From Escherichia phage ST2: DNA of 64,000 nt. Each line of letters begins with the position of its first letter. The stretch's first letter is position 1. Positions 32,546 through 50,902 of this stretch are shown in pieces. A program made the position numbers and the translations under genes. The notes beneath the pieces were generated by a model. It was given only the letters and a program-made list of their open reading frames with translations, did no database searches and was not told the DNA's origin. Where the stretch lies: the sequence record OM982647; one strand, given 5' to 3'.

Positions 32546-32575
32546 CCAAAAAGCCCCAACCTTTCGGAAGGGGCT
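32546..32575 (-). terminator. rho-independent terminator (copy 1 of 3 identical hairpins)
   Basis: Minus strand AGCCCCTTCCGAAAGGTTGGGGCT plus T5. Confidence 0.7.
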
Positions 32576-48170: not shown

Positions 48171-48734
48171 TTATTTACCTAGTTTAGTTATTATAGCTTC
48201 GGCAGCAGCTTTTAGCTTAGATGCAGTGTTAATACGATTTTTAATTTCAGTATACGCATCGCCAAGAACATCAAGGCTATCAGAATAAACACTTACACTA
48301 TTGCGTTCGCTATTTGAAATAGAACCTTTAGTTTTACGATCAAAATCAGTGTACACGTCTTGAAGATCACGGGCTGCCTTCTTTGCATCATCCAATGCAT
48401 CAAGAGCTTTATTCAAAGCATTGACATATTTTTTAGTGTCAAACATATTCTTAGAAATTTTAACAGGTGCACGTTCAGGAGTAGCTAAGGCGGATTTAGG
48501 AACCTGCGTGCCAGATGCCAGTTTCTTAGAAATTTTGAAAAACGCTTTATTGAAACTATTTTCTTGACTCATCGTAAAAGAACTAGTATCGATGTTATAC
48601 ATTTCAATAGCTTTAGCTTTCCACTTAAGAAAATCGCCACGGTCTTTTGGATCCAAGTGGAAGAATACTTTAGTAAGATCTGCTTCAGATGGTAATTTTG
48701 CTGCTTCGGTTAAAAATTCGGCATAGGTTTTCAT
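48171..48734 (-). CDS. internal protein candidate with CTS leader (187 aa)
   Basis: N-terminus MKTYAEFLTE. Confidence 0.65.
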   Translation of the reverse strand: MKTYAEFLTEAAKLPSEADLTKVFFHLDPKDRGDFLKWKAKAIEMYNIDTSSFTMSQENSFNKAFFKISKKLASGTQVPKSALATPERAPVKISKNMFDTKKYVNALNKALDALDDAKKAARDLQDVYTDFDRKTKGSISNSERNSVSVYSDSLDVLGDAYTEIKNRINTASKLKAAAEAIITKLGK

Positions 48735-48824: not shown

Positions 48825-48851
48825 AAAAAGCCCCAACCTTTCGGAAGGGGC
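48825..48851 (-). terminator. rho-independent terminator (copy 2 of 3)
   Basis: Same GCCCCTTCCGAAAGGTTGGGGC hairpin plus T-run. Confidence 0.7.
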
Positions 48852-48857
48852 ATTCTA

Positions 48858-49322
48858 TTATTTAATTTGTTTAGCAGACCAGATACGGTCTTTAATAAGT
48901 TTTTGGATATCTTCAACATACTCAAGGCTATGAGCGTGAGGATTATCTTTGAAGCTATGTGCTCGTGCCAGTTTCTGGCCTTCTGTTTTGATTACTAAAA
49001 GCTCTTTAAGAATTGCTTCATACTTAGAAATAATTCCTTTGGCGATATTTTTTTCTTGAGCGGCTTTAGGGTCCGCTTTTGGCACAGGTGCTTTACCTGT
49101 AGCTTTCTGGAACAATTCACCTGATGCAGCTAGGCTTTTAAAAACTCGGCTAACAGTATTAGCATTAGTAAAACCTTCGGCTTTAAAATCTCTAATAAAA
49201 CGGAAACGTTCTTCATCAGAGGCGTCTTTGTAAGAATATTTACCTGCTTGAATTGCTGCAATCGCAGCGGCTTTTACATCTGAACTAGATTGTTCAGTCA
49301 AAAATTCAGCGTATGATTTCAT
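48858..49322 (-). CDS. internal protein candidate with CTS leader (154 aa)
   Basis: N-terminus MKSYAEFLTE. Confidence 0.65.
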   Translation of the reverse strand: MKSYAEFLTEQSSSDVKAAAIAAIQAGKYSYKDASDEERFRFIRDFKAEGFTNANTVSRVFKSLAASGELFQKATGKAPVPKADPKAAQEKNIAKGIISKYEAILKELLVIKTEGQKLARAHSFKDNPHAHSLEYVEDIQKLIKDRIWSAKQIK

Positions 49323-49367
49323 GTTGCTTTTCCTAAGTTAATTAACTTATCTATTTATTATTATGCC

Positions 49368-49397
49368 AAAAAAAAGCCCCAACCTTTCGGAAGGGGC
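49368..49397 (-). terminator. rho-independent terminator (copy 3 of 3), ends tRNA/small-RNA transcript
   Basis: Hairpin plus T8 on minus strand. Confidence 0.7.
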
Positions 49398-49700
49398 TAT
49401 GCCTTGCGGCAACCTTGTCGGGGTTCCACCTGCTAAGGCAAGTGTTTGTACGAAACGCCGGGATTCGAACCCGGTTATTAAGTAGTTGACGCTACTCAAT
49501 ATTTTTAAAAGGCCATATCTCGACCATATCCGAACGTTCCGTCAAAAACGCTACTCGGCTTACGGCAAAGATATTTCCTCGAATCGATAATTCGGTGCGC
49601 CGTTTCTGCTGTGATGTAAGGGGATATTAACAAATCGTAAAGATTTATTAAGACCAGTCCTTACGCAGGGAACATCAGTCCGACGACTTACCGGTAGCGA
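49398..49700 (-). ncRNA. candidate small stable RNA(s) downstream of tRNA cluster (T4 rnaC/rnaD-like position)
   Basis: About 300 nt non-coding; tRNA-like T-arm CCGGGTTCGAATCCCGG on minus strand near 49458-49474; ends at terminator. Confidence 0.35.
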
Positions 49701-49709
49701 CCCGGCTTC

Positions 49710-50054
49710 TTATTTTGACATATCATCAATTTGCTCTCGACGCCGACGCCATAGATTAATCACTTCATTAACACATTCGGCGTTTGGTATATGACGGCAA
49801 TAATATAATGATTCGCGTTTCTGGAACCGATGTTGCAATGGGATTTCGTTTAAAAGGTCTTTACGGTCAAAGTATTCAAAACTAGTTAACCCAGAACGAT
49901 TTTTAATGAACTTCCAATGTCCAAATTCATTTTGAACATAGATGTAATCGGCATGCTGATACAACGAATTAATCAATCGGTCTGAAATAACTGTATCATG
50001 TTCGTTAAAATAAAACGTTAAATCATGAACTACTAAGTAAACATTACCTTTCAT
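49710..50054 (-). CDS. hypothetical protein
   Basis: 114 aa between tRNA cluster and small-RNA region. Confidence 0.5.
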   Translation of the reverse strand: MKGNVYLVVHDLTFYFNEHDTVISDRLINSLYQHADYIYVQNEFGHWKFIKNRSGLTSFEYFDRKDLLNEIPLQHRFQKRESLYYCRHIPNAECVNEVINLWRRRREQIDDMSK

Positions 50055-50073
50055 ATTTTCCTCACTTATTAAA

Positions 50074-50149
50074 TGGTCGAGACAGTAGGGATCGAACCTA
50101 CGACCTAGGACTTAGAAGGTCCTTGCTCTTCCTTCTGAGCTATGCCTCG
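50074..50149 (-). tRNA. tRNA-Arg (anticodon UCU)
   Basis: Manual cloverleaf: acceptor CGAGGCA/TGTCTCG, D-arm GCTC..GAGC, anticodon loop CTTCTAA, T-arm GTAGGTTCGATCCCTAC, encoded CCA. Confidence 0.8.
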
Positions 50150-50153
50150 TATT

Positions 50154-50228
50154 TGGCGGACGTGCATGGATTCGAACCATGGGCCAATTGATTAACAGTC
50201 AACTGCTCTACCACTGAGCTACACATCC
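50154..50228 (-). tRNA. tRNA-Asn (anticodon GUU)
   Basis: Acceptor GGATGTG/CACGTCC, anticodon loop CTGTTAA, T-arm CCATGGTTCGAATCCATG, encoded CCA. Confidence 0.8.
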
Positions 50229-50232
50229 AAAT

Positions 50233-50307
50233 TGGTGGCCCTGGCTGGTTTCGATCCAGCTACCTATCAGTTATGAGCTGACAGCTCTCCCATTGAGCTA
50301 CAGGGCC
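50233..50307 (-). tRNA. tRNA with CAU anticodon (Met or Ile)
   Basis: Acceptor GGCCCTG/CAGGGCC, anticodon loop CTCATAA, T-arm GCTGGATCGAAACCAGC, encoded CCA. Confidence 0.75.
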
Positions 50308-50386
50308 TAAATAACTTTCTATTACCAAAGGCACTTTAGAGTGCCTTTGGTAATAGAGGGTATGAATTAATAATAACACATAATTC

Positions 50387-50902
50387 TTAAAGCAAATCAA
50401 TCATTTTAACAGTTGGCAAAACGATTTCTTCTTCAATATAAGCAAATTCAACACATTCAACTACACGCAAGAAATCATAATCATAATATTCAGAAGCATG
50501 GCCAAGAATACCAGTGAGACCTTCTGATACTAAATATCCGTTCTCACAGAAAAGGTCGAATACACGCGATTCGTCTTCTTCAGATTTATTACCAAGGTCG
50601 ACTTCAATATCAAAGACCTTTTTAATGAATTCTGGATAAAGCTGGTCTGAGAACAGTCCTTCAACCAAGTATTCATAGATTAAAAGCGAGCAATCACTGA
50701 ATAGTGTATTACCACAGTAACGTTCAGCTTTAGTGCTAGAATGACGACTCTTAAATTTCTTCAAAAGATATTTAAACTGTTGGAGCTCATGCTCTTCCAC
50801 TTCAAACAATGTTTTGGTTTTATAGTTGTCACCATCATTTTCGTAGGTAGTGACGTCAATTACGTAGCCCTTAGGAATTGTACTGCCTAAACAAATATTC
50901 AT
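50387..50902 (-). CDS. hypothetical protein
   Basis: 171 aa acidic ORF. Confidence 0.5.
   Translation of the reverse strand: MNICLGSTIPKGYVIDVTTYENDGDNYKTKTLFEVEEHELQQFKYLLKKFKSRHSSTKAERYCGNTLFSDCSLLIYEYLVEGLFSDQLYPEFIKKVFDIEVDLGNKSEEDESRVFDLFCENGYLVSEGLTGILGHASEYYDYDFLRVVECVEFAYIEEEIVLPTVKMIDLL

Follow-up and report, generated by a model that had tools for sequence, protein, structure and literature searches.

Orthologs of the T4 small RNAs rnaD and rnaC in the tRNA operon of Escherichia phage ST2, with a predicted tRNA-shaped fold for rnaC

Results

The rnaD-rnaC cassette and its T4 counterpart

We analysed 64,000 nucleotides (nt) of DNA from Escherichia phage ST2 (sequence record OM982647), hereafter the window, and studied the transfer RNA (tRNA) operon at positions 49368-50396 on its minus strand. 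The operon is that of a Mosigvirus, an RB69-like relative of phage T4, and its layout is T4-like. Its 3' part is a cassette of two small RNA genes, rnaD and rnaC, followed by a trailer and a terminator:

49594..49713, minus strand: rnaD, ortholog of the T4 species 2 RNA, 86.8% identical to T4 rnaD
49588..49593, minus strand: A/U-rich spacer GAAUUA at the rnaD/rnaC junction
49449..49587, minus strand: rnaC, ortholog of the T4 species 1 RNA, predicted to form a tRNA-shaped four-way junction; identical to T4 rnaC at 138 of 139 positions
49399..49448, minus strand: conserved trailer between rnaC and the terminator
49368..49398, minus strand: intrinsic terminator, a G+C-rich hairpin AGCCCCUUCC-GAAA-GGUUGGGGCU followed by U8, annotated by ARNold in phage PhAPEC2

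BLAST against phage records matches the stretch to 803 of them; its identity to Escherichia phage PhAPEC2 is 99.5%. Positions 49371-49715 of the window align to T4 70830-71173 with 93.1% identity by BLAST. In GenBank, this T4 segment is annotated as rnaC, rnaD, and the last base of tRNA-Arg. Because the match falls on the annotated T4 genes, the stretch, as judged by homology, holds orthologs of T4 rnaD and rnaC and not mere look-alikes. The boundaries of both RNAs were transferred from the T4 annotation. The homology to T4 rnaC covers its full length, and the gene lies within the tRNA operon, 3' of rnaD and 5' of the operon terminator. The rnaD homology includes the invariant 5' and 3' modules described below, and the trailer and terminator together (49368-49448) are 88.9% identical to T4. 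The genes flanking the cassette in T4 and in the window are non-homologous, and therefore the cassette stands as an island of conservation. In addition, the 337-nt stretch folds better than its shuffled versions (z = -5.13).

In T4, rnaD, rnaC, and the terminator also follow each other in this order at the 3' end of the tRNA operon. The two phages differ in three respects. First, tRNA-Arg lies directly 5' of rnaD in T4, whereas in the window a 114-amino-acid open reading frame (ORF) stands there, in the place of T4 segB. The T4 rnaD 3' end encodes ACCA, whereas the window has ACCG. Finally, the central hairpin of rnaD belongs to different sequence families in the window and T4.

A sequence-only reading of this DNA had described a non-coding stretch following the tRNAs, with a perfect tRNA-like T-arm, no full cloverleaf, and a strong terminator at its end, and had likened it to T4-type stable small RNAs (rnaC/rnaD-like) that are co-processed with tRNAs. 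It had proposed ARAGORN and Rfam scans and a covariance analysis across related phages. This reading is supported: the likeness turned out to be orthology, the T-arm lies at 49458-49474 on the minus strand, and the terminator is the GAAA-loop hairpin with U8 that ARNold annotates in PhAPEC2. The non-coding stretch is real, but it does not adjoin the tRNAs directly because the 114-amino-acid ORF (49710-50054) intervenes. Likewise, canonical tRNA calls are indeed absent, but a cloverleaf-like fold appears when the 5' end of rnaC is included.

The presence of T4-type rnaC and rnaD in an RB69-like phage is already known and ordinary. The two have been known as small stable RNAs of T4 since the 1970s. 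In T4, RNAC (~140 nt) and RNAD (~120 nt) are late-accumulating RNAs, and RNAC has been seen by northern blot (PMC9697503). Among 60 of the matches listed, rnaC is named only in two T4 records and in Kha5h. Most of the records among the matches listed leave the region blank, and many others place 'hypothetical protein' coding sequences over rnaC and rnaD. No Rfam family for rnaC or rnaD was found by a gathering-threshold scan of the whole window or at an E-value <=10 on 49200-50450. The alignments of the two RNAs described here could seed such families.

Predicted fold of rnaC

The predicted structure of rnaC is a tRNA-shaped four-way junction composed of the following helices:

49580..49586 and 49451..49457, minus strand: P1, 7-bp acceptor-like stem, 5' strand CGAUUCG and 3' strand CGUUUCG
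49510..49579, minus strand: P2, 70-nt irregular rod in the D-arm position, terminal loop UUGACG at 49540-49545
49476..49501, minus strand: P3, 10-bp hairpin equivalent to the anticodon arm, 6-nt loop CGUCAA at 49486-49491
49458..49474, minus strand: P4, T-arm CCGGG-UUCGAAU-CCCGG, the 17-mer CCGGGTTCGAATCCCGG

For the comparison, GenBank phages, IMG/VR, and metagenomes supplied 31 unique homologs, which cover Tequatrovirus, Mosigvirus, Gaprivervirus, Karamvirus, Winklervirus, Gelderlandvirus, Kanagawavirus, Moonvirus, and Marfavirus. T4-like genera such as those of KVP40, Aeh1, 44RR, and RB49 lie outside this set. For the 139-nt window copy, the minimum free energy (MFE) structure is the same as the centroid structure (z = -4.56). 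RNAalifold, run on the MAFFT alignment of the 31 sequences (alignment A3), recovers the four-way junction in agreement with the MFE structure. In the named structure, 90.1% of the cells are paired, versus 80.9% in column shuffles and 35-49% with slid partners. In these counts, 23 pairs are changed on both sides, and the observed values were reached in none of 500 shuffles. The three approaches are independent and agree on one fold.

The support differs from helix to helix. The 8-bp core of P3 shows double changes at all eight pairs, and the two flanking pairs added by RNAalifold show none. The terminal hairpin of the rod, P2e, is paired in 100% of the cells and carries compensatory changes in four of its five pairs. 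The rod as a whole keeps a length of 70-72 nt in two versions that are otherwise unalignable. At the third pair of P1 (3-70), 18 sequences have GC and the remaining 13 have AU; the other four Watson-Crick pairs are invariant. The middle pair of the T-stem is GC in 14 sequences, UA in 14, AU in one, and UG in one. The T-arm is followed directly by the 3' strand of P1, then by a U at the discriminator position, and then by ACA. Sequences of the T4/Mosigvirus group differ at only 14 of 145 columns, and most of their stem changes are compatible with wobble pairing.

Four homologs (L004, L130, L030, and L253; A3 columns 123-129) retain the T-stem but carry UGCAU(U/C/G)C in place of the T-loop UUCGAAU. 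Therefore, the canonical T-loop is dispensable for the rnaC family.

A different acceptor stem, formed by the internal CGGAACG and the 3' CGUUUCG, was initially favoured since all seven pairs form in the window. It was rejected because eight type-A homologs have an A.C mismatch in it, no type-B homolog can form it, and its internal strand is required by the strongly covarying hairpin P2e.

We place high confidence in the identity of rnaC and rnaD, the rnaC fold, and the operon layout, taken together. In the literature accessible to us, we found neither this fold, nor the lineage-specific encoded CCA, nor the modularity of rnaD.

A predicted kissing loop between P2 and P3

The hexaloops of P2 (UUGACG) and P3 (CGUCAA) are Watson-Crick complementary in 31 of 31 sequences. 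In six Marfavirus-type sequences, the loops change together to UUGGCG and CGCCAA, replacing an A-U pair by a G-C pair. Because of this invariable complementarity and the joint change, we predict an intramolecular kissing loop between the two arms. A search of IMG/VR with a pattern that does not require the loops yielded no homolog without complementary loops. The helix lengths would fit a closed two-helix body, with ~20 bp leading out (P2a-d) and ~21 bp leading back (P2e, the kissing helix, and P3).

rnaC beside tRNAs and its probable processing

Neither ARAGORN nor the Rfam gathering scan calls a canonical tRNA or a transfer-messenger RNA (tmRNA) in 49368-49713. At an E-value <=10, Rfam gives only chance-level matches in the stretch, namely tRNA-Sec at 17 bits (gathering 47) and isrK at 16 bits. 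Judged by the cloverleaf, the 7-nt anticodon loop, the D-arm, and the score thresholds, rnaC is not a canonical tRNA. The motif GAUUCGAGGA near its 5' end prompted a tmRNA-like reading, which was rejected: ARAGORN finds no tmRNA, and Rfam none at an E-value <=10. Neither rnaC nor rnaD matches the Rfam model of YrlA and bacterial Y RNA-like molecules (RF02553), and the only RF02553 match (29.9 bits; gathering 69) covers real tRNAs at 50175-50294.

The gene is nevertheless placed like a tRNA in several genera. The neighbours of rnaC on its two sides are tRNA-Trp and tRNA-Gly in Karamvirus and Gelderlandvirus, and a tRNA-Phe-like gene and tRNA-Trp in Winklervirus, in each case with spacers of ~5-10 nt. 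In Enterobacter phage PG7 (Karamvirus, KJ101592; L003:1554-1648), the 3' 95 nt of rnaC is a 'tRNA-Met' in both GenBank and ARAGORN. Marfavirus-type copies encode U-CCA (U73-CCA) immediately after the 3' strand of P1, whereas the other copies, including that of the window, have U-ACA. The annotated T4 rnaC begins 1 nt before the first base of P1 and ends 2 nt past the last. This placement in tRNA arrays, the 'tRNA-Met' calls, the encoded U-CCA, and the annotated T4 ends indicate that rnaC is probably handled as a tRNA.

We consider a tRNA-type processing route for rnaC somewhat probable, going by these sequence features. The operon transcript would be cut by the tRNA machinery, with RNase P cleaving at the 5' end of the acceptor-like stem. 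The 3' end of rnaC would then be trimmed to the discriminator U and receive CCA, giving a stable RNA of ~140 nt, and rnaD would be freed from the same precursor. In the older T4 literature, a dimeric species 2 - species 1 precursor is reportedly a substrate of RNase P, which we take as a lead and not as evidence.

Distant homologs were sought by pattern scans of IMG/VR, metagenome contigs, and bacterial genomes. In IMG/VR, the matches listed for loose patterns were mostly due to chance, and specific patterns gave only enterobacterial T4-like phages. The pattern scan of bacterial genomes found no copy of rnaC; its single match was of the wrong length and was judged to be chance.

rnaD keeps invariant ends around a variable hairpin

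The script-made alignment of rnaD contains 22 unique homologs, all of which share the 5' module AGAARCCGGGUCGCUACCGG and the 3' module CGGCGCAC. The 5' module forms a hairpin, which in the window is

49690-49706, minus strand: rnaD 5' hairpin GCCGG-GUCGCUA-CCGGU

Across the set, this hairpin reads RCCGG-GUCGCUA-CCGGY, with a closing pair that is A-U in 12 sequences, G-C in five, and G-U in five. The closing stem of the RNA is GUCGUCG/CGGCG(C)AC. Between the invariant flanks, the long central hairpin (~49617-49666 in the window) belongs to at least four unrelated sequence families, a variation that looks like cassette exchange at the sequence level. rnaD would then be a rod with invariant ends and a swappable tip. 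The homolog comparison reveals no defensible tRNA-like feature in rnaD.

Among the genera compared, rnaD is confined to Tequatrovirus, Mosigvirus, Gaprivervirus, and Dhakavirus. In the Dhakavirus phages EcWhh-1 (L132:700-903) and IME341 (L133:699-898), rnaD is joined straight to the trailer and terminator; therefore, rnaC was lost exactly as a unit. In a T4-like phage evolved on the semi-permissive strain ECOR34, a single-nucleotide polymorphism (SNP) in the rnaD region was common to all lines (PMC12685909), which hints at a host-specific effect.

The tRNA trio and the upstream part of the operon

Upstream of rnaD, the operon contains the following features:

50370..50396, minus strand: candidate MotA-type middle promoter, TTTGCTTTA, a 12-nt spacer, and TATTAT; a script consensus match only
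50318..50357, minus strand: perfect 18-bp hairpin (4-nt loop) that separates the candidate promoter from tRNA-Ile2
50233..50307, minus strand: tRNA with anticodon CAU, most likely tRNA-Ile2 (lysidine, reads AUA); ARAGORN and Rfam, 62.4 bits; CCA encoded
50154..50228, minus strand: tRNA-Asn(GUU); ARAGORN and Rfam, 74.6 bits; CCA encoded
50074..50149, minus strand: tRNA-Arg(UCU), reads AGA; ARAGORN and Rfam, 66 bits; CCA encoded
49710..50054, minus strand: gene for a 114-amino-acid protein of unassigned function (RB69ORF150c-like, phrog_3355, E = 9e-51)

All three minus-strand tRNAs are called by both ARAGORN and Rfam RF00005 (62-75 bits; gathering score 29). The genes are separated by spacers of 4 nt each (50229-50232 and 50150-50153), and the sequence encodes the discriminator and CCA at the end of each gene. 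The three tRNAs, their 4-nt spacing, and their encoded CCA had been read correctly from the letters, and the ARAGORN and Rfam scans accepted all three. The same reading had left the CAU tRNA open between Met and lysidine-Ile.

The evidence on this point leans to tRNA-Ile2. The acceptor stem GGCCCUG/CAGGGCC gives the pairs C4-G69 and C5-G68, so that the tRNA combines a CAU anticodon with the two acceptor pairs of a tRNA-Ile2. These pairs are needed by E. coli TilS and are typical of tRNA-Ile(CAU) (PMC1635315). The D-stem GCUC/GAGC has C11-G24 and U12-A23 and lacks the pairs A11-U24 and G12-C23 of tRNA-fMet (criteria of PMC1635315); therefore, the tRNA is not an initiator. Its first 18 nt and its acceptor stem are identical to those of T4 tRNA-Ile. 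Among 5,426 E. coli genomes, its only relatives are ten prophage-borne genes annotated as tRNA-Ile by the Prokaryotic Genome Annotation Pipeline (PGAP). The alternative of an elongator tRNA-Met has in its favour the ARAGORN label Met, which derives from the anticodon alone. Set against the TilS-required pairs (PMC1635315), the identity to T4 tRNA-Ile, and the tRNA-Ile annotation of the sole E. coli relatives, this alternative is quite improbable, and the D-stem rules out the initiator form of the Met reading. For these reasons, we predict with high confidence from the sequence that the gene encodes tRNA-Ile2. Its annotation as tRNA-Ile2 and not tRNA-Met affects how codon use and tRNA supply in such phages are reasoned about.

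AUA and AGA are rare codons in E. coli. In the long ORFs of the window, they occur at 11.0 and 8.6 per 1000 codons, respectively. Because these codons are common in the phage ORFs and rare in the host, tRNA-Ile2 and tRNA-Arg(UCU) fit a codon-supply role.

The candidate MotA-box-like site lies immediately ahead of the tRNA trio and shares sequence with the end of the ORF upstream. Its position matches that of the T4 cluster promoter, from which we infer that it may be the middle promoter of the operon. The T4 tRNA cluster is transcribed from a middle promoter situated shortly before it, giving one ~1.75-kb precursor that ends after species I and contains the tRNAs, the segB mRNA, and species I and II (PMC2330249). 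A clean U-run is missing from the hairpin at 50318-50357. This element might belong to a 5' leader, have a part in processing, or terminate the gene upstream.

The trailer, the terminator, and the neighbouring genes

The trailer contains the hairpin CACUUGCC..GCAGGUG at 49427-49444 and a hairpin with a GCAA (GNRA-type) tetraloop at 49400-49411. It is conserved across four genera, including the segment GGAACCCCGACAAGGU, and its near-invariant segment GAACCCCGACAAGGU has one G variant, in the homolog L108. In Gaprivervirus TH41, the trailer lies ~600 nt from rnaD.

The 22-nt core of the terminator, GCCCCAACCTTTCGGAAGGGGC, has three exact copies in the window (32553-32574, 48830-48851, and 49376-49397), where none is expected by chance. 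A pair of paralogous minus-strand genes lies nearby at 48171-48734 and 48858-49322; both belong to phrog_2280 and begin with MK(T/S)YAEFLTE. The repeated terminator follows at least the second of these genes. Compared with T4, this pair looks like an insert, produced by tandem duplication, that separates the rnaC terminator from e.8.

Discussion

In this study, we found that the 3' end of the ST2 tRNA operon carries orthologs of two T4 RNAs and that one of them, rnaC, has a covariation-supported fold, which makes an old unanswered question of function testable. The features of the locus suggest how the operon products might work. The tRNAs would add decoding capacity, notably for AUA and AGA, codons often used by the phage. 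In rnaC, the rod loop UUGACG would pair with CGUCAA of the anticodon-arm equivalent, so that no anticodon is displayed and the RNA cannot decode. Such a mimic may occupy or titrate a factor that recognises the acceptor/T-arm half of tRNAs, perhaps a tRNA-directed enzyme of the host or a defence factor. On this structural model, we propose, as the best reading of its function but only tentatively, that rnaC is a non-decoding tRNA mimic or decoy. The more elaborate version is distinctly unlikely as it stands. In it, a CCA-tailed mimic locked by its kissing loop would divert, as decoy or sponge, a host factor reading the acceptor/T-arm half or the CCA end of tRNAs, such as a tRNA-processing enzyme or a defence toxin aimed at tRNAs, and rnaD would be a host-specific companion. 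If this is true, two T4 RNAs, orphans for ~50 years, would thereby gain a function.

Several points weigh against the overall explanation, from fold and processing to function. T4 deletions that remove the tRNA region are reportedly viable on laboratory hosts. According to published reviews, RNAC and RNAD have no known role (PMC3014915, PMC9697503). For this phage, both ends of the RNA, its cleavage by RNase P, the addition of CCA, and the contact between the loops are predictions. The covariation of the kissing loop probably reflects one evolutionary event in one clade only. Of the seven pairs of P1, only one covaries, and two are invariant, tandem U.U mismatches. The T-loop takes the non-canonical form UGCAUNC in four homologs, and the canonical tRNA elbow is thus not universal. 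In T4-type copies, moreover, the 3' strand CGUUUCG (49451-49457) has two alternative partners: the internal CGGAACG at 49533-49539 (7/7 pairs) and GAAACG near the rnaD 3' end at 49601-49606 (6/6 pairs). These may represent alternative conformers in the precursor.

The cassette could instead act only in cis. As a structured 3' module, rnaD, rnaC, and the trailer would punctuate the operon transcript, protect it, and bring it to an end, with the stable RNAs as by-products. In T4-type phages, the cassette always stands at the operon 3' end directly before the terminator, and the Dhakavirus genomes keep the trailer and terminator even without rnaC. This explanation does not account for Karamvirus, Winklervirus, and Gelderlandvirus, where rnaC sits mid-array without rnaD or trailer. 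The rod, the loop complementarity, and the conserved unpaired nucleotides also exceed the needs of a processing signal, and the RNAs accumulate in T4 (PMC9697503). We regard a purely cis-acting module as unlikely, and the same holds for the specific suggestion that it would offer entry sites for RNase P or RNase E and block 3' exonucleases. A smaller probability attaches to rnaC, rnaD, or both being trans-acting regulators that base-pair with phage or host mRNAs. Small, abundant, late-accumulating RNAs (PMC9697503) would suit that role, the variable tip of rnaD could be the targeting module, and the SNP in the rnaD region is common to all the ECOR34-evolved lines (PMC12685909). Nearly all conserved nucleotides of rnaC are engaged in intramolecular pairs, however, and T4 has no trans-acting RNA with a characterised function (PMC3014915).

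The remaining two explanations deny the stretch an RNA function. It could be a decayed remnant of tRNA genes, as its T-arm, acceptor-like stem, location in a tRNA cluster, and loss of an anticodon loop might suggest. Yet rnaC is 99.3% identical between T4 and this Mosigvirus with non-homologous flanking genes, 23 pairs are maintained by compensatory changes across at least nine genera, and two otherwise unalignable versions of the P2 rod agree in a length of 70-72 nt. A functionless remnant is therefore very improbable. The stretch could also encode small proteins, as many GenBank records have it. Short ORFs are present, such as those of 50 amino acids at 49347-49499 and 42 amino acids at 49505-49633, and many deposited genomes carry 'hypothetical protein' coding sequences there. 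On the other hand, the T4 RNAs are established gene products, 1-nt indels fall inside the ORFs between close relatives (L106, L083), and the substitutions are paired stem changes and not codon-periodic, which leaves the protein-coding explanation hardly any probability. Both the remnant and the small-ORF explanations are contradicted by the conservation together with the compensatory changes.

Comparison with known systems

With a canonical tRNA, the predicted fold of rnaC shares a 7-bp acceptor-type stem continuous with a 5-bp T-stem, the UUCGAAU loop, a discriminator position, and the four-way junction topology. Some homologs also encode CCA, and rnaC has a gene-like placement in tRNA arrays. 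Unlike a canonical tRNA, it has no 7-nt anticodon loop, carries a 70-nt rod in place of the D-arm, and contains two U.U mismatches. The tRNA-like domain of tmRNA is similar in that its acceptor stem, built from the two ends of the RNA, lies beside the T-arm and a long helix leaves the junction. Unlike tmRNA, rnaC lacks an mRNA-like ORF, the G3-U70 pair, and the series of pseudoknots.

Loop-loop contacts are known from L2-L3 of the purine riboswitches and from TAR-TAR*. In these systems, as over 6 nt in rnaC, the hairpin loops are Watson-Crick complementary. The arms of rnaC differ from theirs in being very unequal (10 bp versus ~25 bp), and therefore the rod must fold back for the predicted contact to form.

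A parallel in logic is found in eukaryotic systems, where mascRNA (from MALAT1) and the tRNA-like RNAs of murine gammaherpesvirus 68 are processed, CCA-tailed, non-aminoacylated tRNA mimics. They have no sequence relationship to rnaC and belong to different hosts, and the CCA tail and the lack of charging are hypothetical for rnaC. By analogy, rnaC may share with them the proposed logic of a tRNA-shaped module that is excised by tRNA-processing enzymes, CCA-tailed, and non-decoding.

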